A stretch of 64,000 bases of DNA. Origin: Escherichia coli. GTDB taxonomy: Bacteria; Pseudomonadota; Gammaproteobacteria; Enterobacterales; Enterobacteriaceae. The notes below the pieces were generated by a model. It was not told where the DNA came from. It worked only from the letters and a program-made list of their open reading frames with translations, and did no database searches. The stretch lies in NCBI GenBank assembly GCA_025336685.1, contig GCA_025336685.1_4717.1, one strand, 5' to 3'. The position numbers and the translations under genes were made by a program. Each line of letters starts with the position of its first letter. Positions within the stretch are counted from its first letter, which is position 1. Positions 3,914-55,750 of this stretch are shown one piece after another.

Positions 3914-5500
3914 TTAGAAGTTGCCTTTGGTAGTTACCGCATCCACCAGGTTAAACAAATCAACACTCAGCTTGTAAACCTCCTGCTGACTACGGTTGAG
4001 CAGCGGGCTGTACGCGGATGGGTTGATGTTCGGCATGGTGTACGGAATCGGTGAAGAGCCGTCAACGCTGATCTTGAACTGGCTGTCCAGGAACAGGTTA
4101 ATCGCACCACTCACCATAACCGCGTTCGGGTTGTTACCCAACATGGAGGGCAGGATATTGGTAATCATGTCGGAACGCATCTGTTCAGCAGCGCGGTTAC
4201 AATCATACCCTTTAATGAACGGTACAGCGTCAGTAACCGCAACCGCCCATTGCCCAGGCATGATGCCTAGTTCTGGATGGCCGTGGTTATCAGCAATGAA
4301 ACGGAACGACTCCAACATGCGATACGTCATCGCAGCAGGCATCATCGCAGCAAGTGATGAACAATACAGCGTTGGATAATCGATAACGTCCCAGCTCTGG
4401 CTATCGGTCGGCATCCAACCAAACTCGGTGGTTGCCGATGTACCGCGACGAGCTTCCACGTACGGGAACAGTCTTAAGACATCACGGACATGCTCGCCGA
4501 ACATCCGTTTCATATCAGCCCAACTCAGGCTACCGCTGAAGGCGAATCCCTCATCACGCATAATCGCACCGAATACCGGATGCGCAACCAACGGTTCTTC
4601 ACGAACAGCTTGAGCTGCTTCTACGTAAATATCCTCATTCTCTGCGCTACCTGGATGAGACCCGCTTTCGTACGTCTGACGAATAGCCCCGACGTTATCG
4701 AAGGCTTTTCTTAGATAGATGGTTGGGATGTTCGTATCAGCACTCGCTGGTTTGATTTTCTCCGTTGCGAAACACATTGCTGCTTCCACACCACGAAAAA
4801 CCGGTTCCGGTTGCGATTGATAGGAAGAGCGATGAACCACATCAGCGTAGGCTGGATCGAACTGCTGCATCACGTTCTGCATGGCTGGGTCCATGAACTG
4901 GTTATCAAAACCACCATTGCCTACCCAACGTGCAGTCGACGCATAAGTCAGCGTATCCTGAACACGAGTACTGAACTGAACATCACGATTAACAGGGTCG
5001 TATGCGCCAGTCAAAAGGTTCGTTGCGTCCATCGGGGTCGCGCGAACGATTTGCTTACCGAACATATCCGTTGTGGTTGTTTCGGTTACCTGGATTACAT
5101 TCGTGAAGAAGAACACCAGTTCGTTCGGCAGATCGATGGCACGTGTTGTAAACGCATCGAGGCTTACCGAATGGTCGGTGTATCCAGAAATGTAATGGAC
5201 GCGCTTGGTTCCTGGTGCAAGGGCCAAGGATTCTTCCACAGCCATCATGAAATGGAAACGACGTGTGCCCCAACCATTCGCAATCTCCGAAACCCCCTCA
5301 GGTTCTGCAGACTGCTGTAACAAACCGGTTGCAAGCTTATTGATTGCTGATGGGGTTGTTGCCGTACCGAACTTCGTCGTGTTAATAAAGTCTTCGATGC
5401 TACGCATGCTATCTGCATGGAATCGTAGTGGACGACGTTGTACGTTGTTGTACGGTGCGGTTTCAACCATCAGTATTTCACGAACATTCATCGGGATCAT
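3914..5500 (-). CDS. hypothetical protein (528 aa)
   Basis: Long ORF starting 1 nt after the stop of the upstream 5502-7088 gene, so probably co-transcribed from the promoter at 7184; no motif recognised. Confidence 0.55.
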   Translation of the reverse strand: MIPMNVREILMVETAPYNNVQRRPLRFHADSMRSIEDFINTTKFGTATTPSAINKLATGLLQQSAEPEGVSEIANGWGTRRFHFMMAVEESLALAPGTKRVHYISGYTDHSVSLDAFTTRAIDLPNELVFFFTNVIQVTETTTTDMFGKQIVRATPMDATNLLTGAYDPVNRDVQFSTRVQDTLTYASTARWVGNGGFDNQFMDPAMQNVMQQFDPAYADVVHRSSYQSQPEPVFRGVEAAMCFATEKIKPASADTNIPTIYLRKAFDNVGAIRQTYESGSHPGSAENEDIYVEAAQAVREEPLVAHPVFGAIMRDEGFAFSGSLSWADMKRMFGEHVRDVLRLFPYVEARRGTSATTEFGWMPTDSQSWDVIDYPTLYCSSLAAMMPAAMTYRMLESFRFIADNHGHPELGIMPGQWAVAVTDAVPFIKGYDCNRAAEQMRSDMITNILPSMLGNNPNAVMVSGAINLFLDSQFKISVDGSSPIPYTMPNINPSAYSPLLNRSQQEVYKLSVDLFNLVDAVTTKGNF

Positions 5501-5501
5501 T

Positions 5502-7088
5502 TTATTTTTTTCCTCTTAAATTTACTACATGTTCATTTAATCGAACAACTAATTGCACAAGCTGCTGACGGATATCTGCTGGGCAAAGCATCAATCCTTT
5601 ACGATCAGCTGGGACTTTCTCAAGGATTTCCGGACCTGCTGCGGAAACATCCCAATCCCATTCACAAAACGCATCAGCCACCATGTTAATACCGACAACC
5701 GGTAAAGTTGTACGTTCATCTTCATACATGGCATGCGGATACAATTTATTGACGGTAATGACCTCCTGTGGTTTTAACTGATGGATAATCTGGTAAACGT
5801 CGTCGCGTTTAACCTGGATACCTACGGTCAGCGCAGCCAGTTGAGGAAAACCCCAATGGTCTAATAAGCACGCTGCGATTGCTAACGCTTTTGCCTGATG
5901 TACGGCTTCAATCGGTGATAGACTTCTCGCTGGAAGATGACTATCAAGCAACCATTGTGCCAATGCTCGGCATCCACGGTTGATTGGTTTTAACTCAATG
6001 CTGTCATCATGTTTAGCGTAGGTGTATCCGTCGTAACGTTTTGCGATACGCGCATACATGTCTTCAACTTTACCGTAAGGTGCTGTTTCGTCGACGTCAT
6101 GCAACACCCGTTCCATCTGGGTAAGATACGCGATATCAAGGATGAGTACGCGTGGTGAACGTTTATCTTTCACCATCAACGCATCAATCACGCCTTGACT
6201 GTCTTCATCTTGCGCATTCCCTCGCGGCGTTTTCTCGCGAATCGGTCCGCTGAAACGTCGTTCCGTACAAAGGTTATTCACATAGCTAAAGATCAACGTT
6301 ACCAGGTGCGTACAACTCACCAACACTCCATCTTTAACGACAGGCTGTACGGCTTGGTCCAAATCGCGTACTGCGAGACGGCGAACGATGGCTTGTGAAC
6401 GCAACCAACCAGGTACTTTCTCTGTCGACATGTAATCCACCGTCATCGACAGCGTGATCTTTTTATCGCCTGTCTGTGCACGGATATAATCTTCCAGTCG
6501 GTCGTAAGCAGCGATATCATGAATGCGTGTTTTATACATCAACGACATAGCCACTTCTTCTTTACGTACCGTCCCGTACGTTTTCCCTGCGTCAATCAGA
6601 AACTCCGCCCAAATCGGCACCATCAGCCGGACGTAGATCGCTAACGCCGTTAACTCAACGTAATCGTTTCGTAAATAGGTTTTCTCAGGTATGTCATCCT
6701 CACCTAATGTTGTTTTCATGTCTGGCGGTAATTTTACCCAACCTGGGGTATTACACAACGCCAGAATCTCTTCATAGACGATCGGTTTGTAAATTTCACC
6801 GACGGCGCGGCTCAACTCCTCCATTTGTTGCTGTGGAGCAATGTAGTTATCCATCGCTTCACGTGCTTTAACGAACCCTTCGAAGATGTCGTCGATTCGA
6901 CGTGGGTTCTTTTGTTCTATCCAAGCGAGATACTTATTAATCTCTCGCATCTGATTGCTAGCCATATCCCCATCAATCTTGATGTAGCCTTGGCCTGAAA
7001 ATTCCACGGCACGTCCGTCACGATGTTTGATGAGATAGTGATCCAGCTTTTCTTTGCCTTGCGTCGTAATGACGGGCACAATGTGCAT
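5502..7088 (-). CDS. hypothetical protein (528 aa), first gene of a promoter-driven operon
   Basis: Long ORF about 96 nt downstream of a TATATTAC-type promoter motif. Confidence 0.55.
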   Translation of the reverse strand: MHIVPVITTQGKEKLDHYLIKHRDGRAVEFSGQGYIKIDGDMASNQMREINKYLAWIEQKNPRRIDDIFEGFVKAREAMDNYIAPQQQMEELSRAVGEIYKPIVYEEILALCNTPGWVKLPPDMKTTLGEDDIPEKTYLRNDYVELTALAIYVRLMVPIWAEFLIDAGKTYGTVRKEEVAMSLMYKTRIHDIAAYDRLEDYIRAQTGDKKITLSMTVDYMSTEKVPGWLRSQAIVRRLAVRDLDQAVQPVVKDGVLVSCTHLVTLIFSYVNNLCTERRFSGPIREKTPRGNAQDEDSQGVIDALMVKDKRSPRVLILDIAYLTQMERVLHDVDETAPYGKVEDMYARIAKRYDGYTYAKHDDSIELKPINRGCRALAQWLLDSHLPARSLSPIEAVHQAKALAIAACLLDHWGFPQLAALTVGIQVKRDDVYQIIHQLKPQEVITVNKLYPHAMYEDERTTLPVVGINMVADAFCEWDWDVSAAGPEILEKVPADRKGLMLCPADIRQQLVQLVVRLNEHVVNLRGKK

Positions 7089-7182
7089 AACAACCTCTTT
7101 TCGCGGTTCCCTGTTGAAACGTCTTCTGTGACGTCTACCACAAAGGTAACATTTATGTCGCCTCTATGACTTTGTTCATAGA

Positions 7183-7200
7183 GGTAATATAAGCGTGAAT
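7183..7200 (-). promoter_or_regulatory. phage promoter, minus-strand core TATATTAC with extended consensus (attcacgCTTATATTACC)
   Basis: Plus-strand gtaatata at 7184-7191. One of five sites sharing ttcaSg-N-YTATATTACC with an A/T-rich upstream flank, all upstream of minus-strand genes. Core matches the early promoter element reported for phiKZ-like phages. Confidence 0.6.
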
Positions 7201-7330
7201 AATTTTGGATTCCAGCTGAGTTATCGCTCAGCATGCAAGGCATCCCGCCGAAGCGAGACACCTTGCACTAACGGAAAGTATTCGCGTTACCTTCTGAGTC
7301 TTCGATTCAGAATGCGAAGCTAAAGCATTA

Positions 7331-8119
7331 TTAGAACGCTAAGCCATCAAAGGCTACAGACGGATCATCGTCGTCATTTGCGCTTGGTGCATCCCAACGG
7401 GTATCAGGGGCAGCTGGGGCCGAACGTGATGCGTTAGAGTTACCGTTGTACTGGCCGTTACCAGCATTACGGTTACCGCCGCCGTTATTATTGTTGCGAT
7501 TATAGCTGTTGTTGCCATTACTTACGCTACGGCTCTCACCATCGAAATTGGTTGCGAGGATGCTTGGCAACACAGCACGATGGATGCGTACGAATTCCAA
7601 TGCACAAAGCGGAGAAACAACCCCGATCTGCAACGGTTGCCCAGACTCATCAACCAGAGAGTGGAAACGTGGTGGTTTGAATACGAACTGGATGTTTGGT
7701 TTCTGGTATGCTGTTACAGCGATGTATACCGAACCATCATCATTCTTACCAACCCATGTTGTACTTTCGGTAATCTGTTTCTTCTTACCTGGGTTATTGC
7801 GATCATCAATAACCTTTTCGTTCTTCATCGCAAAGCGTTGACCTGGTTTACCCTTAGCAACCTGCTCAAGGATCGCAAGCAGGTTGTAGAACGCGTATGA
7901 ACTCATGCGTGCCCAAATGCTTTCAGCGCGACCCTGCTGGTCTTTACGACCTGTATAAACCGTGATACGCGGTTGATTCTTAGCAACGCTAATTTTCAGT
8001 GAGGGGACCGAATTGCCACCCTCAACTTTTTCGTCCGCCCACAGTTTCCAGTTGTTGTCGTCGTAAGCCGTAGGAATAATGTTTCCTTGTGGTTTACTAC
8101 CCGAATTCCAATTGCTCAT
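7331..8119 (-). CDS. hypothetical protein with N/G-rich linker and acidic C-terminal tail (possible ssDNA-binding protein)
   Basis: C-terminus is NGNNSYNRNNNNGGGNRNAGNGQYNGN...DDDDPSVAFDGLAF, resembling the flexible linker plus acidic tip of SSB proteins; the N-terminal domain is not recognisably an OB fold by eye. Confidence 0.3.
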   Translation of the reverse strand: MSNWNSGSKPQGNIIPTAYDDNNWKLWADEKVEGGNSVPSLKISVAKNQPRITVYTGRKDQQGRAESIWARMSSYAFYNLLAILEQVAKGKPGQRFAMKNEKVIDDRNNPGKKKQITESTTWVGKNDDGSVYIAVTAYQKPNIQFVFKPPRFHSLVDESGQPLQIGVVSPLCALEFVRIHRAVLPSILATNFDGESRSVSNGNNSYNRNNNNGGGNRNAGNGQYNGNSNASRSAPAAPDTRWDAPSANDDDDPSVAFDGLAF

Positions 8120-8192
8120 TTTCAGCCTCGTTACGTAGTGTGCATCAATTTCTGGTTCAGATGATTGTCAATATTAGTTAAAAATTACAGCC

Positions 8193-9026
8193 TCAGCGGA
8201 ACATGTCCAACAGAAAACGTTTTGCGAAGGGGTCGCGTAACTGGTTGACACCAAAGCGTGTACGGTCTTCCGTTGTTAACGGATTCCACTGACTCTGTTT
8301 CGCAAGATCTAACAGCATCCTTTTTATTTTCACCGGTCCGCTGTTAAACTGTACGGCTTGGTCACCGAACGTTCCCAATGTCATCTTTGTAAATGGGAGG
8401 TTCGCAACCTCTGGACGATCCCCACCAGTAAGTTTGGTTGACCACTGATGTTTTCGTTTCAAAGTTCCGGTATGACTCTCTACCAAAATAAGTTCACCAA
8501 AACCGGTTCTTGCCAACAAGTCAGAAACATAGTGCGTGGTGATATACGATGTTTTGGTTATCGTGGGTAATTTACAATCCATCGATTCGATATTAGGGAG
8601 TCGATCTACAGACGCCATCAACCCACGATAAAGTGTAGCGAGTCCTTTTTGTTTTTCGGTATGTGGCTCCTTGTGTATAGCGTGCGGATAAACACGCTTT
8701 ATTGATGCATAGGTTGGCGCATATATCCGCAAACGAATATGGGGAACGAGTTCATTCACCAACTGCCTTAGCTGCAGCAACTCGTTTTGAAAATCCCCCG
8801 TTATCATCGATAATGGTAATTTATGTTGCTCGACGTCTTCAAAGCTTTCAACAAAATTGCGCGCTAAAGTACGCAGGTTGAACAACCAATCCATCGGTGT
8901 TTCTGGCTGTTGCTGTACTGCTGATAATGTTGCTGACGTCCCCACCGATAAAGGATAATCACCTAGCGTGCGGGCGTACATATCGCTCATACCCCACAAC
9001 TCCTTCTTATCATGGCAACGTATCAA
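8193..9026 (-). CDS. hypothetical protein (277 aa)
   Basis: ORF in the same-strand operon; no motif recognised. Confidence 0.5.
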   Translation of the reverse strand: MIRCHDKKELWGMSDMYARTLGDYPLSVGTSATLSAVQQQPETPMDWLFNLRTLARNFVESFEDVEQHKLPLSMITGDFQNELLQLRQLVNELVPHIRLRIYAPTYASIKRVYPHAIHKEPHTEKQKGLATLYRGLMASVDRLPNIESMDCKLPTITKTSYITTHYVSDLLARTGFGELILVESHTGTLKRKHQWSTKLTGGDRPEVANLPFTKMTLGTFGDQAVQFNSGPVKIKRMLLDLAKQSQWNPLTTEDRTRFGVNQLRDPFAKRFLLDMFR

Positions 9027-10152
9027 GCCAAGCAGAAACCTTTAAGGCATCAACGTTCGGGTATTTATTACGGATGCGTTCGACCAACAAACGCTTAACG
9101 TTGTCCTTTGTCAAGTCCCCACCCTTCTCGATAACGTTATTGACAAAACTGTTCTTTAATAGCGACTGGTTGTTCTTGGCATCCGTTTTAATTGACCAGA
9201 CAAAACCTGGATACAAAGAAGGGATAGAACGAAACGTTTTCGCTGCGTCGTCTTCCTTATCGCAGCGTATTCGAATATGATCGCCCTTCTTCAATGGAGC
9301 CAATTCCCGTTCCAACACACGGACAATTTCATCTCCAACAAGACCATGCAGTTTTATCGTCTTGTAGACATCTGCTTTCTTGTTCTCAACAAATTCCCAT
9401 TGGTCGTTAAACGATTCTGTTAACGTATAACGGAGGTACCCCTTTGGACCTTCTTCGCCATGCGACAAGCGACCGAACGAACCGCCAACCATGATACGTC
9501 CTTTCTGGGATTGTAAGTGAATATGTCCGCTCACAATCCATCCCTGGGTCTTCTCCACCATTGCGTTATACGCATCACTGCTATGAACACATGTCGCTTT
9601 TAACGCTTCTGGTGGAAGCTGATATTCGAACGCACCGTGCATCAGAATGAAGTCCGGCGATCCCTTCTCATCAATAAGTCGGTTCACGGCTGACAACGTC
9701 ACATCCGGGTCGTGGCTGTAGTTATCTGGAAGATAAAGTACTTTTAAACCAAAGTCTTCATCAACCATGCAGAGGTCATCGTAATAACGAACTTTCGCTC
9801 CTATCTCCATGACCTCGTTCTGCTCAACGAACCACTGGCTTTGCTTCTGGTCGTGTAAATTGGTACCCTCAAGAAAGATCAATGTAATATCGTGTTTTCT
9901 CGCATACCGTAACAACCAGGTACCCCAAGCACGAACAGCAACCACGTCACTCGTTACAAACGTCGTAATACGATCGAAGACATCACCACTGAACGTAATC
10001 ACGTCAAGCAGCGCAGGATCTTCTTTGGTGATGTAATAACGTAGCTGGTTAATCAGGTTTACTGTTGGTGTTTGACGATGGATAAAGTGAATATCCGACA
10101 AATTGATTCCACGTAATACCCCAGGCGTTTTATTTCGACTGAAGTCTCGCAT
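9010..10152 (-). CDS. calcineurin-like metallophosphoesterase (Mre11/SbcD-like nuclease candidate)
   Basis: Ordered phosphoesterase motifs: LSDIHF (D-x-H), GDVFD (GD), GTNLHD (GNHD-like), MHGAFEY, SGHIHLQ (GH-x-H). Confidence 0.6.
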   Translation of the reverse strand: MRDFSRNKTPGVLRGINLSDIHFIHRQTPTVNLINQLRYYITKEDPALLDVITFSGDVFDRITTFVTSDVVAVRAWGTWLLRYARKHDITLIFLEGTNLHDQKQSQWFVEQNEVMEIGAKVRYYDDLCMVDEDFGLKVLYLPDNYSHDPDVTLSAVNRLIDEKGSPDFILMHGAFEYQLPPEALKATCVHSSDAYNAMVEKTQGWIVSGHIHLQSQKGRIMVGGSFGRLSHGEEGPKGYLRYTLTESFNDQWEFVENKKADVYKTIKLHGLVGDEIVRVLERELAPLKKGDHIRIRCDKEDDAAKTFRSIPSLYPGFVWSIKTDAKNNQSLLKNSFVNNVIEKGGDLTKDNVKRLLVERIRNKYPNVDALKVSAWLDTLP

Positions 10153-12459: not shown

Positions 12460-12477
12460 AGTAATATAGCCGTGAAA
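12460..12477 (-). promoter_or_regulatory. phage promoter, minus-strand tttcacgGCTATATTACT
   Basis: Plus-strand gtaatata at 12461-12468, about 94 nt upstream of the 11903-12367 start; matches the extended consensus. Confidence 0.6.
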
Positions 12478-14257: not shown

Positions 14258-15669
14258 CTTCAGTTTAATTTGGTCGAACGTATTCCAATTTCAATCCATG
14301 CCAATCACCGCCTTTACTAATAGCGGTACTTATCGTAGTCGGATGCACTTTATGTTCTTCAGCAAGGGCGAATCTATCAGGATAGACTTTATGTGTACCA
14401 TCCTCAAACACCACCTTTACTGGGAACCTTTGTAATCCACCAGTTTTTGGTCTAGGCTCTTTAGGAATATATTTACATTCGTTCACATCGCCAGGATAAT
14501 TCCTTGTCCACCATGCTTTCCAACCGTTTCTGGAAAACATCTTATCTCCATGACATAAGCTATGACTTAATGTCGCATAGCTCACTCCCACCATTGTTGC
14601 CGCCATTACGGTACTTTCCATGTGATACTTGTCTCCATCGGGCGATATTAAAACCAACCCGCCGTAAATAACATACGACTTACCGGCATCTTCGGATGTG
14701 AAACCGACAAATTCCATTCCGTGGGTAGCCGCATCGTAATATTTCATCAACGGCCATTGTCGTGTAGTACGGAACCATTTTGAAATCTGGGTGTGTGGGA
14801 TACCGTAACACTTAGCCGCATCGCGCATACTGTAATGTTCGGTTATCTCGCCAGTTCTCAAATCCTTTATCCATACTGTTTTAGCTTTCCAGTTCAAGCC
14901 CGTACGATAGGCATGGTACGTATTTTGGGATTGACTCGTCCATTCAAGATTATCCAAGCGGTTGTTATCTTTAACTCCGTCAAGATGGTTACCTACTAAC
15001 ATTGATCCCTCAGGCAGCATAGGTTTTTCACGAAAGGTGGATAAAACAACATGATGAGCTGCTATATCTCTACCTTCATGTCTGACCCTTACATATCCTA
15101 ATACGTTAGTTTTTCCTACTTCCTCTCCAGTATAGGCATCTATAATGACACCCTCCACAGAAGCGGCAAGTCCGGGATAATCTTTACAATGGTAAAATCC
15201 TGGGAATTTTGTCTCTCTAAGTTTCATCTTCTCTCCGCTATCGGCCAACAGAGAGAAAACGTTCCTCGGAGGCCGACGTTTTCAAATTAAACTACGTTAT
15301 CGACTATATCTTCATCCTCATTGCGAGGAGTCTCCCGTTTGGGTCTGTGTTTAACAGAGCCTACTCTACTCGACATCGCGTCTTTCGATAGTCTGTGAGC
15401 ACACATCTTAACGAACATTCGTGGACTCCTAAACAGGTGAACATTCTTGTTAAGATGCTTCGCTGCGGGTTATTCCCGTCCTACCTCTTTTACCATACCC
15501 AGTTCATTACGCTGGCCCTCATCTATGTCGCCACGATGAGTTGGTGTGTAGTCCGATTACAGAAACTTCCCGTCAATTAGAGAGTTTTAACTATGTTCCT
15601 GTTACCAGAAACCCGACTCCGATGATATCAATAAATCAACGTAAGTTATTGATTTAATTGAAGAAACTG
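14258..15669 (-). mobile_element. group I intron (about 1.4 kb) with HNH endonuclease ORF in its 3' part, interrupting the beta-prime-like gene
   Basis: Minus-strand core elements: P/Q-like GGACGGGAATAACCCGCAGCG (plus 15461-15482), R-like GCTCACAGACTATCG (plus 15386-15399), S-like AAGATATAGTCG (plus 15301-15312). The 5' exon ends in U, the intron ends in G, and splicing yields a perfect NADFDGD. Confidence 0.75.
14265..15248 (-). CDS. intron-encoded HNH homing endonuclease
   Basis: HNH motif HHVVLSTF...VGNHLDGVKDNNRLDNLEWTSQSQN plus helix-turn-helix-like repeats (YGIPHTQISKWF, MVGVSYATLSHSL); sits inside the intron; TTG start with an in-frame ATG 7 codons downstream. Confidence 0.85.
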   Translation of the reverse strand: MADSGEKMKLRETKFPGFYHCKDYPGLAASVEGVIIDAYTGEEVGKTNVLGYVRVRHEGRDIAAHHVVLSTFREKPMLPEGSMLVGNHLDGVKDNNRLDNLEWTSQSQNTYHAYRTGLNWKAKTVWIKDLRTGEITEHYSMRDAAKCYGIPHTQISKWFRTTRQWPLMKYYDAATHGMEFVGFTSEDAGKSYVIYGGLVLISPDGDKYHMESTVMAATMVGVSYATLSHSLCHGDKMFSRNGWKAWWTRNYPGDVNECKYIPKEPRPKTGGLQRFPVKVVFEDGTHKVYPDRFALAEEHKVHPTTISTAISKGGDWHGLKLEYVRPN

Positions 15670-16925
15670 AAGTCGGCATTGTATCCCTTAAGGATCATCA
15701 CGCTTAACCCGATGGTGTTATCCTGCGGATCGCGTTTAACCTTGGTGATTTCAAGACATTGGTTACTGCTTCGGTCAAGTGATGGGTTTCGAACAAAACC
15801 ACACACAATCCCATCGAACGGTGTATCGGCAATAAGCTCATCGTGTAGCTCGCTCATCATCGGGTGGTAATTACGGACATGTTCCGCAACGAACGCACGT
15901 GCTGCTCTTGGTGAATAACCACGATGGAATAACTTGGATTGGATGTGTTCTTTATTGGTTAATGTAAATGGCGCGTATGGGAAATGCAGATGATAATAAC
16001 GATGGTTCGCTGTTATCGAACTGATTACGGTACGCGTGGTGAATGGGTGTAATGTACCTAATATGTTTTTACGCGTGATACCTTTCTTCTTACCGATGAA
16101 CTCATCGAAAATCGCCGAGTGGTACTGCAGCAGCTTCAGTTGTACTTTCGCCATCCAGTTTTCTTTCTTTCTGGCGCTCAAAGGTGTTGTTGGGTGATAG
16201 ATACTATTCAATGTGCCGATAGCATCGATCGCACCTTCCATTTTGCTATCTGCATAACGGCCGGTCGGTGTATTTTCGATAACGAACATCATGGCCGCAG
16301 GAAAGCTGATATACTGGCTGAAGAACTTATCACGATGGATACGGATGAATTCTCGTAGCGTGTCAACTTTCTCTGTGTTCTTCGGTCCACGTAACGTAGG
16401 TCCTTTATACAAGATCTCCATGATGCGATCGAAGTTCTGTATAAAGCTATTTACGCCACGTCGTATCCCGAATACATCGAATTGCTGCTCCAGATAGTTC
16501 TTGAGTTCGATGGGTCGTTTTACATTTGGACGGTAACTGGCATCAATGAGCCACGTCATCGTTTCGAAGCTTTTGATATTCAACTCGCTTGCCAGCACGA
16601 GATGGACCAACGGGTTAATGAACGCATCGATTCCTTCAGGGACACGCGCCCAGACCGTCGAACGAATCTCCTGTTCTGCTGGGTAGGTCACAACCGTTTT
16701 ACAGTTTGGACACACCGTGCCGAGCAGCTCACCACGATTGTAAAAACCGCATCCACATTGCGGTGTGATATCCAACGTATCGCTGGAGTAAACACGGGTG
16801 ATAAAACTGTTTAATTTCTTCTTCTCTTCGACGACTTTTGTATCGTAATCGTTCAACAAAATCGGCGTAAAGGGAAGTTCTGCGAGCTGTCTATCGAAAC
16901 TCACGATATCGAGCATGATGGCCAT
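15670..16925 (-). CDS. RNA polymerase beta-prime-like subunit, exon 1 (zinc-finger N-terminus through NADF)
   Basis: CGCGFYNRGELLGTVCPNCKTVV matches the beta-prime zinc-binding motif (E. coli [23 protein letters not shown]); GKKKGITRKNILGTLHPFTTRTVIS matches [24 protein letters not shown]; the listed ORF ends ...KGYNADF followed by SFFN-stop, which is the start of the intron. Confidence 0.8.
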
Positions 16926-17017: not shown

Positions 17018-18913
17018 TTAGAACAGGTTGAATGCCCCACCCATGTTGTTACCGCCAACATTCGGACGATCGCTACGTGCATAGATGTTGCCGGAGATGT
17101 TACCCAGACCACGAGCACGTGCTGCTGTGTTACCACGAACAGCGGTACCTGCCAGATGCTGGATGTTCTCAGGACGGATGGTGAAGCCAGCTTCGGCAGC
17201 CGCTTCAATCAATGCCGCAAGCGCATTCGGTTCGAAATCGTAACGCATTGCCCAACCGGTTTGTTCCCAGCTACCAGACAGAACGCGATCGATGATTTCG
17301 TGACGAGCAACAACACGCTGAGACATCGACATATCGGTACGGTCGAAGCTGTCTTCCCAAGCTTCTACGGTATCCGGGTTAGTGATGTTCATCATGTACA
17401 GATCGTCCATATCACGAATATCGTGACGGTGGCCATCCTGGTGGTTGTAGTGACCCAGCGGGATACGGTTACCGGTAGCGTACACTAACGGCTGGCCGTA
17501 TTGATATTTCTTGCTGAAGCAACCCAGGGTGGTATCATCGAATGCACGATAGAGTGCTTTATAGCCTTCGGAGATTTCTTGAACTTTACCGTCAACGTTG
17601 CCCGTAAAGATCTTCTCAGCTGCAGGGATCATACGCAGCAACCAGCTATATTCACCTTCTTCCGGTACATCGATAGAAATCAGCAGAGACGGATACAGTA
17701 CCTGTTGCAGGAACTTGTAAATCTGCTCGTTGGTTTGAGTAGACAGATCCAGCGGTGCGGTAACTTCCGGATCCAGTACCATTGCCAGAGCACCCGGGTT
17801 ATGAGGACCGATGCCACGAGCAGCGTTGCTGATTAAAGACTGTGCCCACGCCATACCGCTGTTCAGCGTAGCGATGGTACCAATCAGACCTAACACGAAA
17901 GTGTTCGGAGTGAACGCATCCAGCTCCAGCGGGTAAGCGCTGGTCATCACGTAACGCGGCTGGTATTGTACAGTCGGCGGTACCGGATAACCGTTAACCA
18001 GAACAGGACCTTGGTTGAAGGTCGGGTTCTGCGGGCTGTAGGTCAGGTCAATGTAACCAGTGGTTGCGACCAGGCGCTGTTGACTATCGTAATCGCTCAT
18101 CGCTTGACGGATACGGTTAGAGATAGTTACAGTGATGTCAGAACGTACTGGGTTACCGACGATATCGCTGTCCTGCATACCGCTGGTGTTGTACTGAACG
18201 CTGCTGATCGGCTGATCGCTTGCCATCATGCCCAGGTTGAACTGCGGCAGGCCCAGTTTATCGCCGAGACGGATTTCGATCGCGGTTTGGATTGCGTTAT
18301 CTGCAGCAGACAACAGGGTGGTTGCCAGATGTGCAGATTCAGCGGTGATTTCATTGGTCACCACAGCCAGACCGGCGATACGAACAGTACCATTAGCCTT
18401 ACCACCAATAGCCGCATACATTGCCGCCATGACTTCGTTGATGAACGTGCCGTTCAGGTTATCAACCCAGGTACGTGGTACCAGAATGTTACCATGCGGA
18501 CCTTGTTCTTCACGACGCGGCAGCGGAGCCAAACCGGCAACCAGCGGAAGCACATAACCGAAGAAGTGGTTATGGTCACCAACTTTTGCACCGCTCATAA
18601 CAACCAGGGTCGGATACGGTACACTGTACTGGTTAGGATCGACGGTCACCATGATGAAGTCGTCTTTGAATCCTTTATCTTCCAGTTCTTTTTCCATCAG
18701 ACGGCGGAGATTCAGTACCTGCTCGGAGCCAGTATTACGGCTAATACGACGGCTCAGTGTACGGTTGATCGTACGCATCGTATGAGTTACTTTAGGCTGG
18801 CCAGCAAAATCTGCAGCGGTTTCCAGCGCCTCATCAGCACGTTGTGCGGTGCGGGTTTCAGCTGCACGAATTTCTACATTATCGTTACCGTTATTACGTA
18901 CGTCTAAGCCCAT
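17018..18913 (-). CDS. chmA: candidate phage nucleus shell protein (chimallin-like), 631 aa; alternative: major virion protein
   Basis: Size typical of chimallin; stand-alone gene bracketed by a TATATTAC promoter (73 nt upstream) and a strong hairpin; flexible N-terminal region and G/N-rich C-terminal tail ending ...GGNNMGGAFNLF; PhuZ present in the same genome. No direct sequence confirmation. Confidence 0.4.
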   Translation of the reverse strand: MGLDVRNNGNDNVEIRAAETRTAQRADEALETAADFAGQPKVTHTMRTINRTLSRRISRNTGSEQVLNLRRLMEKELEDKGFKDDFIMVTVDPNQYSVPYPTLVVMSGAKVGDHNHFFGYVLPLVAGLAPLPRREEQGPHGNILVPRTWVDNLNGTFINEVMAAMYAAIGGKANGTVRIAGLAVVTNEITAESAHLATTLLSAADNAIQTAIEIRLGDKLGLPQFNLGMMASDQPISSVQYNTSGMQDSDIVGNPVRSDITVTISNRIRQAMSDYDSQQRLVATTGYIDLTYSPQNPTFNQGPVLVNGYPVPPTVQYQPRYVMTSAYPLELDAFTPNTFVLGLIGTIATLNSGMAWAQSLISNAARGIGPHNPGALAMVLDPEVTAPLDLSTQTNEQIYKFLQQVLYPSLLISIDVPEEGEYSWLLRMIPAAEKIFTGNVDGKVQEISEGYKALYRAFDDTTLGCFSKKYQYGQPLVYATGNRIPLGHYNHQDGHRHDIRDMDDLYMMNITNPDTVEAWEDSFDRTDMSMSQRVVARHEIIDRVLSGSWEQTGWAMRYDFEPNALAALIEAAAEAGFTIRPENIQHLAGTAVRGNTAARARGLGNISGNIYARSDRPNVGGNNMGGAFNLF

Positions 18914-18984: not shown

Positions 18985-19002
18985 GGTAATATAACCCTGA
19001 AA
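18985..19002 (-). promoter_or_regulatory. phage promoter, minus-strand tttcaggGTTATATTACC
   Basis: Plus-strand gtaatata at 18986-18993, about 73 nt upstream of the 17018-18913 start; matches the extended consensus. Confidence 0.6.
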
Positions 19003-47749: not shown

Positions 47750-47767
47750 GGTAATATAGACCTCAAC
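47750..47767 (-). promoter_or_regulatory. phage promoter, minus-strand gttgaggTCTATATTACC
   Basis: Plus-strand gtaatata at 47751-47758; matches the extended consensus. Confidence 0.6.
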
Positions 47768-55735: not shown

Positions 55736-55750
55736 CGTAATATAGCCTTA
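55736..55750 (-). promoter_or_regulatory. phage promoter, minus-strand attaaggCTATATTACG, inside the putative intron upstream of the HNH ORF
   Basis: Plus-strand gtaatata at 55737-55744, about 42 nt upstream of the HNH start. Confidence 0.55.

Follow-up and report, generated by a model that had tools for sequence, protein, structure and literature searches.

The closest described relatives of the protein analysed here are the ChmC proteins, also named Imp6, of nucleus-forming jumbo phages. The Goslar, phiKZ and PhiPA3 orthologs carry the name ChmC in Enustun et al. (NAR 2024, PMC11077065), and ChmC/Imp6 is also treated in Kokontis et al. (bioRxiv 10.1101/2024.03.27.586873). PhiPA3 ChmC has a Whirly fold, is a homotetramer by SEC-MALS, and binds ssRNA with a Kd of 58 nM and ssDNA with a Kd of 184 nM, i.e., RNA about 3-fold more tightly (PMC11077065). 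Nucleic-acid binding is lost in the Kmut and Rmut variants; a protein deleted for its C-terminal tail no longer forms condensates or localises to the shell, but is still tetrameric and binds RNA (PMC11077065). The region equivalent to the linker described below drives the condensates of PhiPA3 ChmC, and the S/D/E-rich end of the tail was read by the ChmC authors as an 'electronegative cluster' (PMC11077065). When Goslar gp176 is knocked down with dCas13d, plaquing efficiency falls to ~4% and the nuclei are small and contain less DNA; neither Rmut nor the tail deletion rescues the knockdown (PMC11077065).

Among the non-structural proteins ChmC ranks second in abundance; it is expressed early and is proximity-labelled with nuclear UvsX. 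It was located on phage mRNAs by eCLIP, and its knockdown leads to mRNA export defects, as seen by mRNA FISH. PhiPA3 ChmC is found at the shell and in the cytoplasm, not over the nuclear DNA, and Goslar ChmC forms puncta inside the phage nucleus. In phiKZ, gp67 co-purifies stably with Imp1 as a ~120 kDa complex of about 2:1; the known imported cargos include a RecA-like protein, an RNase H-like protein and host TopA. The gene is essential: no transposon insertions were recovered in it, and it is among the top matches in an antisense-oligomer essentiality screen.

The second point of comparison is bacterial SSB (E. coli SSB, PDB 1EQQ/4MZ9), in which a tetrameric core is followed by a disordered linker that drives condensates and by an acidic tip with a hydrophobic-Pro-aromatic ending. 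Three reports describe the docking of at least 17 partners by the E. coli SSB tip and the formation of condensates by SSB (PMC10018359, PMC10164576, PMC11947617). A search for SSBs in phiKZ-like phages came back empty, which its authors call 'rather surprising' (PMC4889955), and the group is described as being without a classic OB-fold SSB (PMC7824862); the missing recognisable SSB has been noted twice (Kazlauskas 2016, Iyer 2021).

Identity and genomic neighbourhood of the gene

The analysed stretch of Escherichia coli assembly GCA_025336685.1 (64,000 nucleotides of contig GCA_025336685.1_4717.1, hereafter the window) contains a real open reading frame exactly where the original prediction placed one; its strand, which had been left unstated, is minus (Table 1). 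The frame begins with ATG and ends with TAA, directly followed by another in-frame TAA. The GenBank label of this ORF is 'hypothetical protein'.

By tblastn, the product is 98.5% identical over 262 aa to Goslar_00176 (gp176), ~32% identical to PHIKZ067 and 27% identical to PhiPA3 061. Four substitutions, two of them in the linker, separate it from Goslar gp176 (which has I38, A153, S231 and S234), and 7 kb of DNA around the gene are 95.2% identical to Goslar. Residues 20-239 match phrog_3284 (E = 1e-35), a family of unknown function in PHROGs. Pfam and NCBIfam gave no match for the protein, and the search of PDB sequences returned just a WD40 match over the first 27 residues (E = 0.4), which is attributable to chance. 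The description of the N-terminal domain as unrecognised thus holds for Pfam, NCBIfam and PDB sequences, but the protein is assigned to phrog_3284 and is a ChmC ortholog.

Judged from sequence comparison, the ORF is the ortholog of Goslar gp176, phiKZ gp67, PhiPA3 gp61 and 201phi2-1 gp123, i.e., ChmC/Imp6. The neighbouring genes match phiKZ gp65 (E = 1e-52), gp66 (1e-24), gp68 (2e-34) and gp69 (7e-17) by BLASTP, and together they form a conserved five-gene block (SbcD-like, gp66, ChmC, nvRNAP gp68 and Imp1, also named PicA) corresponding to phiKZ gp65-69; this synteny confirms the orthology to phiKZ gp67. The same five-gene order is found in the metagenomic loci L007 and L008, and because of the five-gene synteny the family members with a canonical tip (see below) are true orthologs. 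The genes for ChmA and an nvRNAP subunit are located 9-11 kb from chmC.

As a whole, the locus is very probably best explained as chmC of an E. coli jumbo phage that resembles Goslar and forms a nucleus (Chimalliviridae); no observation speaks against the identity, and this assessment includes the mechanism proposed below. The gene itself is already known and characterised; what is new is the SSB-like tip found across the family. For the annotation, the gain is a move from 'hypothetical protein' to a characterised essential jumbo-phage factor, together with a corrected expectation of an OB fold.

Table 1. Coordinates of chmC, its parts and nearby features in the window
Feature	Position	Strand	Description
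Imp1 homolog	3914-5500		two genes from chmC; BLASTP against phiKZ
Perfect 16-bp hairpin with UUCG tetraloop	7233..7268	minus	in the 242-nt untranslated gap 7089-7330 downstream of chmC
chmC (imp6) CDS	7331..8119	minus	262 aa plus TAA stop; ORF listing, translation
Acidic C-terminal tip SANDDDDPSVAFDGLAF, residues 246-262	7334..7384	minus	five D, no K/R, C-terminal Phe
Disordered N/G/S-rich linker, residues 194-245	7385..7540	minus	pLDDT 42-54
Whirly/PUR-like core (predicted), residues ~20-193	7541..8062	minus	AlphaFold2 pLDDT 94-99
N-terminal segment, residues 1-19	8063..8119	minus	AlphaFold2 low to moderate confidence
Shine-Dalgarno GAGG	8126..8129	minus	6-nt spacer to the chmC ATG; read from the sequence
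nvRNAP subunit gene	15654-16925	same as chmC	
ChmA (PF25677)	17018-18913	same as chmC	

Fold of the core and anatomy of the tail

Two independent AlphaFold2 models, based on alignments of 9 and 149 sequences, have identical core topology. In the model from the 149-sequence alignment the core is a tandem beta-beta-beta(-beta)-alpha arrangement, with strands at residues 40-46, 49-59 and 65-71 and a helix at 74-89 in the first repeat, and strands at 95-105, 113-125, 131-136 and 144-146 and a helix at 165-190 in the second. The segment that precedes it is poorly conserved in our alignment A1 (the pLDDT averages 56 over residues 1-10 and 78 over residues 11-20). The repeated four-stranded antiparallel sheet against a helix that defines the Whirly/PUR/MRP fold is present in the protein, and the top Foldseek matches in the PDB are Trypanosoma brucei MRP1/MRP2 and human PURA (8chv_D), with probabilities of 0.96-1.00 and target TM scores of 0.41-0.48. 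The best match is MRP1/MRP2 (2gid_A, E = 3e-3, probability 1.00, target TM 0.48), and the fold similarity to Whirly/PUR proteins is moderate (Foldseek E ~1e-3, TM < 0.5). Among viral predicted structures, Foldseek returned only uncharacterised jumbo-phage homologs. At the sequence level, none of the Pfam models for Whirly, PurA and MRP finds any of the 149 family members at E <= 1, and a profile search of PDB sequences found no Whirly/PUR/MRP match.

From these predicted structures we conclude that the core is a Whirly/PUR-like fold of the type that binds single-stranded nucleic acid. It shares with MRP1/MRP2 and PURA, which are tetramers that bind ssRNA and ssDNA without sequence specificity on a basic beta-surface, the tandem beta-sheet-plus-helix repeats; identity to these proteins is just 7-14%, and they are without the G/N-rich linker and the SSB-like C-terminal tip. 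Plant Whirly proteins are ssDNA-binding proteins of organelles. Residues 1-193 of the window protein have a net charge of +7, and K42, R51 and R71, the positions of the published Goslar Rmut, are all retained. Together with synteny and the N/G-rich, acidic tail, these residues and the predicted Whirly-like core are what the protein shares with ChmC/Imp6.

Another reading is that of a divergent OB-fold protein, in the strongest form a highly divergent OB-fold SSB of the bacterial SSB, T4 gp32 or T7 gp2.5 type. The tail architecture is the one feature that would fit. Against this, the confident models show tandem beta-beta-beta(-beta)-alpha repeats and no five-stranded OB barrel, no OB-fold protein, and hence no OB-fold SSB, is among the top Foldseek matches, the core has no SSB match in Pfam or NCBIfam, and a phmmer comparison to E. 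coli SSB yields E = 0.39. The predicted structure thus refutes an OB-fold SSB, which we consider extremely improbable. The structure nevertheless has a nucleic-acid-binding fold, the Whirly/PUR-like core, and the more general idea of a divergent ssDNA-binding protein survives in part: the PhiPA3 ortholog does bind ssDNA, but it favours RNA, and the family is not uncharacterised. A phmmer search with E. coli SSB against all ORFs of the window found no canonical SSB, a weak test covering 64 kb of a ~237-kb genome.

Residues 194-262, with AlphaFold2 pLDDT of 42-54, form a disordered tail that makes up ~26% of the protein and not a full C-terminal third as first described. Its linker is N/G/S-rich (N 14, G 8, S 7 and Q 1 of 52 residues), so that the earlier wording 'G/N/Q-rich' does not apply. 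The ending SANDDDDPSVAFDGLAF is as originally reported, and the acidic tip reads DDDDPSVAFDGLAF. It can be divided as DDDD-PSV-AFDGLAF: D at -4, L at -2 and the terminal F are kept, and P at -1 and an adjacent D-run are missing. The AFDGLAF ending is a degenerate variant of the SSB-Ct-like motif of the family, D-D-D-[I/L]-P-[F/W/M]-COOH. In the clade relatives P0002 and P0003 (64% identical), the D-run and an AFQGLPL ending are kept despite differing linker lengths. The short string SAPAAP is common to the window tail and the E. coli SSB linker; acquisition from the host was considered and rejected, as Goslar gp176 has SASAAP there and the match is therefore variant-specific and probably compositional.

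In its layout the tail is of SSB type, as originally predicted, with a disordered low-complexity linker and an acidic, aromatic-ended tip whose family consensus D-D-D-[I/L]-P-F corresponds to the C-terminal hexapeptide of E. coli SSB. Unlike bacterial SSB, ChmC combines this tail with a predicted Whirly/PUR-like core without sequence homology to SSB and, according to published work, prefers RNA over ssDNA; the tip of the window protein is AFDGLAF where E. coli SSB has DDDIPF, and partner docking by the ChmC tip is putative. T7 gp2.5 and T4 gp32 are likewise abundant early proteins in which an acidic tail, with a Phe end in T7 gp2.5, recruits polymerase and helicase and autoregulates DNA binding. 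These proteins differ from ChmC in having OB-fold cores, no Whirly tetramer and no long N/G-rich linker.

The C-terminal tip across the family and its candidate roles

We surveyed the tips of 155 representatives of the family (of 1,187), with 200 shuffles of the last 60 residues of each as a control. The pattern [DE][ILMVF]P[FWYML]$ is present in 105 of the 155 representatives versus a shuffle mean of 0.02 (maximum 1), and because the layout recurs throughout the 155 representatives the tail is not a product of chance. Proline is found at -1 in 122/155, D at -3 in 118/155 and I/L/F at -2 in 135/155; the last residue is F/W/Y/M in 142/155 (F/W/M in 139/155), and Phe is enriched at -6. Acidic residues make up 34% of the tips and basic residues 0.7%; of the 40 residues before them, 58% are G/N/Q/S and 6% acidic. 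DDDIPF closes the sequence of 17 representatives and DFDDDIPF that of four, the latter being exactly the C-terminal octapeptide of E. coli SSB, whose tip sequence was verified. The end of P0056, PPMDFDDSIPF, matches the last residues of E. coli SSB at 10 of 11 positions, and the tail of P0093 matches the C-terminal part of the NCBIfam SSB model PRK09010 (E = 6e-6). Searched at full length against PDB sequences, the family profile found SSB tails at non-significant values (E = 1.7 and 4.8). A TIR-APAZ match of this profile in the PDB (E = 0.16) was treated as noise.

On this sequence evidence, we consider the tip to be a short linear motif, conserved and of the same type as the C-terminal tip of bacterial SSB. 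An account of the tail in purely physical terms, as proposed in the ChmC paper, in which the N/G-rich part phase-separates and the acidic end solubilises the protein and dampens non-specific binding by folding back, is possible but somewhat doubtful; it would make the resemblance to SSB tips a case of convergent autoinhibition with no partner docking, which we regard with similar reserve. This account is in line with the loss of condensates on tail deletion while tetramers and RNA binding stay, with the 'electronegative cluster' described by the ChmC authors (PMC11077065), and with the contrast between the acidic family tips and the net positive core. Charge, however, leaves unexplained the position-specific conservation of non-acidic residues at -1, -2 and the C-terminus and the Phe enrichment at -6, a pattern that is the signature of a docking motif. 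Folding back in cis is also known elsewhere, as the acidic tails of SSB, T7 gp2.5 and T4 gp32 bind their own DNA-binding surfaces. The recurrence of the bacterial consensus in phages of unrelated hosts (SEDLPF in Burkholderia phage FLC9, FDTDVPM in Bacillus phage AgentSmith) likewise argues against a purely physical tail.

A tip that docks partners raises the possibility that ChmC is a functional SSB of the phage nucleus, which would be compatible with its RNA role: it would coat the ssDNA of replication and recombination while the tip recruits enzymes. We put this forward tentatively. Candidate partners would be imported host SSB-interacting proteins or the phage RNase H-like, helicase, SbcCD-like and UvsX/RecA-like homologs. 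ChmC could conceivably then be the SSB analogue that has long been missing in phiKZ-like jumbo phages, in the form of a Whirly tetramer, not an OB fold, with an acquired or convergent SSB linker and tip. With the same uncertainty, the tip might bring these partners to single-stranded DNA or RNA in or at the nucleus, and replication and recombination might be linked to RNA handling through one abundant protein.

The part-for-part correspondence with the bacterial SSB layout (tetrameric core, low-complexity linker, D-D-D-[I/L]-P-F tip), the DDDIPF and DFDDDIPF endings, the P0056 and P0093 matches and the syntenic orthology of the canonical-tip members all speak for such a role, and ChmC would then supply the SSB whose lack in phiKZ-like phages is on record (PMC4889955, PMC7824862). 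It is also in keeping with ssDNA binding by the PhiPA3 ortholog, early and abundant expression, proximity to UvsX, DNA-poor nuclei on knockdown, the nuclear puncta and the presence of a gene for an SbcD-like nuclease two genes upstream of chmC. For a replicative SSB, on the other hand, 184 nM is a weak Kd. The eCLIP signal on phage mRNAs, the RNA preference in vitro and the export defects on knockdown count against it as well, as does the location of PhiPA3 ChmC at the shell and in the cytoplasm. The lower DNA content could follow secondarily from lost gene expression. Furthermore, the cultured model phages have off-consensus tips (AFDGLAF in Goslar, ELASFDW in 201phi2-1, DEDMPSF in phiKZ). 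The combination of partner docking by the tip with condensate formation has its parallel in E. coli SSB, as described in the reports cited above. SSB is unmentioned for ChmC in the ChmC paper, the import preprint and the 2025 and 2026 reviews that were searched; with these silent and no detectable SSB in phiKZ-like phages, ChmC is a candidate SSB analogue. Published experiments place ChmC in mRNA binding and export and in condensates, and the evidence favours RNA.

ChmC might instead act mainly as Imp6, the partner of Imp1/PicA at the shell, with the tip as a handle for Imp1, the shell or cargo, or as a putative cytoplasmic decoy that titrates SSB-interacting enzymes of the host, but we think this unlikely. 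The stable phiKZ gp67-Imp1 complex, the Imp1 homolog two genes from chmC, the loss of shell localisation on tail deletion and the RecA-like, RNase H-like and TopA cargos are consistent with it. However, imp6 was not recovered in import genetic selections, and a partner internal to the phage need not hold the motif at the bacterial consensus. Imp1 was moreover bound by 'gp67-FLAG', in which a C-terminal tag would block the free carboxylate, a weak point as the tag placement in the preprint is inconsistent.

Our preferred reading is that of an RNA-binding ChmC with an SSB-like tip. Identity, fold class, synteny, tail anatomy and tip conservation come from the present analysis, and tetramer formation, RNA and ssDNA binding, condensates, essentiality and Imp1 binding from published work on Goslar gp176 and the PhiPA3 and phiKZ orthologs. 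As in the characterised orthologs, the Whirly/PUR-like core would assemble into a homotetramer whose basic surface (K42, R51, R71) binds single-stranded nucleic acid, with ssRNA favoured ~3-fold. The disordered N/G-rich linker would make the tetramer multivalent and drive condensates with RNA, and the tip may act as in SSB, docking partners and/or folding back on the basic binding surface. In the infected cell, early, abundant and essential ChmC would join the phage nucleus and Imp1/PicA and bind phage mRNAs, and would be needed for growth of the nucleus, mRNA export and the production of middle and late proteins. A functional tip would be a candidate hub on which replication and repair factors gather in the phage nucleus, or else a mimic through which the phage hijacks the SSB interactome of its host. 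The phenotypes of the tail deletion would then need re-examination, because the published deletion takes out linker and tip at once.

Transcription signals around chmC

Scans for sigma-70 promoters and intrinsic terminators near chmC gave none above shuffle expectation on the coding strand, which is expected because the phage has its own RNA polymerases. The motif TATATTAC, which we take to be an early-promoter element of phiKZ, has 5 occurrences, all on the minus strand; this number is not significant (2.0 expected, at least 5 in 8/100 shuffles). The hairpin downstream of chmC is not followed by a U-tract, and the intrinsic-terminator scan of the minus strand was empty; the hairpin may be a transcript 3'-end or stability element. 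The RNA of the whole untranslated gap (minus strand) folds with an MFE of -86.9 kcal/mol, versus -58.8 +/- 4.2 for shuffles (z = -6.64).

Identity, genomic setting and published role

The original prediction treated the N-terminal domain of the protein as unrecognised, with a tail arranged as in bacterial and phage SSBs. The open reading frame exists, on the minus strand, and its product ends as described (...SANDDDDPSVAFDGLAF). The last 17 residues include five Asp but neither Lys nor Arg, and the core has a net charge of +7. The linker, given as G/N/Q-rich, is indeed rich in Gly and Asn, but Ser rather than Gln is the third component (14 N, 8 G, 7 S and 1 Q in the 52 residues from 194 to 245). 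The gene itself is already known. Goslar_00176 of the E. coli jumbo phage vB_EcoM_Goslar is 98.5% identical to its product (tblastn, phage genomes), and phiKZ PHIKZ067, PhiPA3 gp061, 201phi2-1 gp123 and others align over residues ~22-199 at 26-34% identity (tblastn). Searches of Pfam, NCBIfam and PDB sequences gave no meaningful match; in PHROGs the protein belongs to phrog_3284 (E = 1e-35), a family of unknown function.

The 7 kb around the gene are 95.2% identical to Goslar, and the minus-strand gene order is SbcD-like, gp66-like, ChmC, gp68-like and gp69-like (see table). Because of this homology, the conserved neighbours and the nearby Chimallin and nvRNAP genes, the window is assigned to a Goslar-like chimallivirus and the gene identified as the ortholog of Goslar gp176; the Chimallin gene confirms that the phage is nucleus-forming. 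The closest database cluster (P0001, 263 aa, 98% identical), on a 241-kb contig, is listed under Salmonella enterica serovar Schwarzengrund as a hypothetical protein, and thus Goslar-like jumbo-phage genomes sit in bacterial assemblies under host names.

Features of the window, with the basis of each assignment
Feature	Coordinates	Strand	Basis or detail
gp69-like Imp1/PicA	3914-5500	minus	BLASTP vs phiKZ gp69
gp68-like nvRNAP subunit	5502-7088	minus	BLASTP vs phiKZ gp68
Untranslated gap, 242 nt	7089-7330	minus	between chmC and the nvRNAP subunit gene
Perfect 16-bp hairpin, UUCG tetraloop	7233-7268	minus	RNA fold; no U-tract after it
ChmC ORF, 262 codons	7331-8119	minus	ATG 8119-8117; TAA 7333-7331, then a second TAA
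Shine-Dalgarno GAGG	6 nt upstream of the ChmC ORF	minus	sequence
gp66-like	8193-9026	minus	BLASTP vs phiKZ gp66
SbcD-like	9010-10152	minus	BLASTP vs phiKZ gp65
HNH homing-endonuclease ORF	14265-15248		next after the intron
Group I intron	15281-15660	minus	Rfam RF00028, 50.3 bits, just over the gathering score of 50
nvRNAP subunit gene	15654-16925	minus	phrog_2987
Chimallin	17018-18913	minus	PF25677
TATATTAC, five copies	7184-7191, 12461-12468, 18986-18993, 47751-47758, 55737-55744	minus	

The name ChmC was given to PhiPA3 gp61, phiKZ gp67 and Goslar gp176 (Enustun et al., NAR 2024, PMC11077065). The protein is a homotetramer by SEC-MALS and binds ssRNA and ssDNA with Kd values of 58 nM and 184 nM, and both activities are lost in lysine or arginine surface mutants. 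Its C-terminal 50-70 residues are disordered, N/G-rich and then S/D/E-rich, and are required for condensates and for localisation to the shell; phage mRNAs are bound in eCLIP. Knockdown of Goslar gp176 with dCas13d reduces plaquing to ~4% and results in small nuclei with less DNA and in defective mRNA export, and middle and late proteins are lost globally; neither gp176 K42A/R51A/R71A nor a 1-203 truncation rescues the knockdown (PMC11077065). For phiKZ gp67, binding to the import factor Imp1 led to the name Imp6 (Kokontis et al., bioRxiv 10.1101/2024.03.27.586873), and the gene is essential according to transposon and antisense screens. The best-supported reading is that the window protein is ChmC/Imp6 and acts as published: a Whirly-like tetramer would hold single-stranded nucleic acid on its basic surface, and the linker would confer condensation.

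Predicted fold of the core

AlphaFold2 models from a shallow 9-sequence alignment (core pLDDT ~80-96) and a 149-sequence alignment (core pLDDT 94-99, pTM 0.73) share one topology: strands 40-46, 49-59 and 65-71 and helix 74-89, then strands 95-105, 113-125, 131-136 and 144-146 and helix 165-190. Residues 194-262 are predicted to be disordered. The best Foldseek PDB matches of both models are T. brucei MRP1/MRP2 (2gid, 2gia, 2gje) and repeats I-II of human PURA (8cht, 8chv), with E ~1e-3 to 1e-2, probability 0.84-1.00 and target TM 0.35-0.48. No OB-fold SSB occurs in these PDB results, and on the predicted structure the core is not the divergent OB fold that had been expected. Viral predicted-structure matches are all uncharacterised jumbo-phage proteins. 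Since the Foldseek matches are moderate and Pfam profiles for Whirly, PurA and MRP match none of the 149 family members, the relation of the core to Whirly/PUR/MRP proteins lies in the fold and is of moderate strength (TM <0.5). The residues K42, R51 and R71 are conserved in the window protein. The original prediction is partly supported: it holds for the tail architecture and, broadly taken, for single-strand binding, but it fails on the OB fold and missed that the protein is characterised.

Positions 74-155 of the family profile (A3) weakly resemble the APAZ region found in TIR-APAZ proteins from short prokaryotic Argonaute systems (PDB 8j7s, 8sp0, 8fex); the similarity is non-significant (E = 0.16-0.18) and probably noise.

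The C-terminal tip and bacterial SSB

A core-only profile retrieved 1,187 cluster representatives at E <= 1e-3 (929 at E <= 1e-10), and the tips of 155 proteins from the top of this ranking (the best 150 of the 1,187 plus earlier hits) were compared. Counting the last residue as 0, the preferred residues are F at -6 (33/155), D at -5 (76/155), D or E at -4 (99/155 and 29/155), D at -3 (118/155), I, L or F at -2 (69/155, 43/155 and 23/155), P at -1 (122/155) and F, M or W at 0 (98/155, 21/155 and 20/155). The motif [DE][ILMVF]P[FWYML]$ ends 105 of the 155 proteins; shuffling the last 60 residues of each leaves 0.02 matches on average and never more than 1. Acidic residues make up 34% of the tips and basic ones 0.7%, and the 40 residues preceding the tips are 58% G/N/Q/S and 6% acidic. 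The ending DDDIPF is found in 17/155 members and DFDDDIPF in 4/155; E. coli SSB ends in ...SAPAAPSNEPPMDFDDDIPF (checked in PDB 1EQQ/4MZ9), and one relative (P0056, PPMDFDDSIPF) is identical to its last residues at 10 of 11 positions. The tail of another (P0093) matches the C-terminal part of the NCBIfam SSB model PRK09010 (positions 98-177 of 177, E = 6e-6). The census shows the family's extreme C-terminus to be a position-specific short linear motif of the bacterial SSB C-terminal (SSB-Ct) type, beyond a mere acidic patch. Members with the canonical tip are true orthologs: two such loci, L007 (DDDIPF) and L008 (SDDIPW), keep the five-gene synteny; the 279-kb contig of L008 also carries Chimallin and RNAP fragments.

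Tips of cultured phages are looser than the consensus: SAFDEDMPSF in phiKZ, SGFDDEIPNF in PhiPA3, GSEDLPF in Burkholderia phage FLC9, SFDTDVPM in Bacillus phage AgentSmith and ELASFDW in 201phi2-1. The Goslar-clade tip consists of a D-run and then AF[DQ]GL[AP][FL], and that of the window protein is thus a degenerate derivative in which the acidic run, the D at -4, the L at -2 and a Phe at the end are retained.

Five relatives (P0018, P0056, P0093, P0098 and P0111, 404-466 aa) have two full ChmC cores in tandem and no further Pfam domain. The first four continue into a linker rich in Q, N, G and P and then into an SSB tip close to the canonical one (PPMDFDDSIPF, PPLDFDTDIPF, PPAFDTDIPF or DYDNDIPF), and P0111 has a shorter tail ending in ...EIVENDIF. 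As dimers, such proteins could mimic the ChmC tetramer. In the AgentSmith ortholog (gp127 of the 200-kb phage vB_BspM_AgentSmith; locus L003, 2992-3654) the N/G-rich linker is almost wholly absent and the end is still ...DSFDTDVPM; the tip appears to be kept even without the condensate-forming linker.

The E. coli SSB tip docks at least 17 partner proteins, and this SSB forms condensates that depend on its linker (PMC10018359, PMC10164576 and PMC11947617); ChmC condensates likewise need the tail. A single-sequence search of the 64-kb window gave no canonical SSB among its ORFs. Two comparative-genomics papers describe phiKZ-like phages as lacking a detectable SSB (PMC4889955, which finds this "rather surprising"; PMC7824862). 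This published lack gives concrete form to the hypothesis, which we hold to be less likely than not, that ChmC serves the phage nucleus as its SSB analogue, as a rival or a complement to its published role. Such a function would fit a tetrameric, abundant and early expressed protein that binds ssDNA, lies in proximity to UvsX, is encoded next to an SbcD-like nuclease gene and leaves less nuclear DNA when knocked down. However, ChmC prefers RNA, its eCLIP signal is on mRNAs, PhiPA3 ChmC is found at the shell and in the cytoplasm, knockdown in Goslar impairs mRNA export, and the tips of the model phages are off-consensus. The published tail deletion takes out linker and tip jointly, and existing data therefore cannot separate condensation from tip docking. 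The term SSB is not used with ChmC in PMC11077065, the import preprint, or the 2025 Annual Review of Genetics and 2026 Nature Communications reviews, and no open-access paper or bioRxiv preprint on jumbo phages, their nucleus or Whirly proteins was found to make a link to SSB. That the family tip has SSB-Ct identity thus appears to be new, and it opens the question of the missing SSB to direct testing.

Untranslated elements and a group I intron

The RNA of the gap beside chmC is predicted to fold more stably than its shuffles (minimum free energy -86.9 vs -58.8 +/- 4.2 kcal/mol, z = -6.6). It could be a phage RNA polymerase terminator, a stability element of this very abundant mRNA, or a small RNA. 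The motif TATATTAC, which we take to be similar to the core of the phiKZ early promoter, occurs only on the strand that also encodes the examined ChmC-ChmA gene block, and one copy precedes the gp68-like gene by ~100 nt; the motif's count alone is not significant (5 vs 2.0 expected, with 8 of 100 shuffles reaching 5).

The nvRNAP subunit ORF directly before the group I intron is truncated, covering positions 1-419 of the 478 in the phrog_2987 profile. An intron is annotated at the corresponding site in Goslar, but this 3.7-kb stretch aligns between the two over only 72% of its length, and the endonuclease region therefore differs between Goslar and the window phage.
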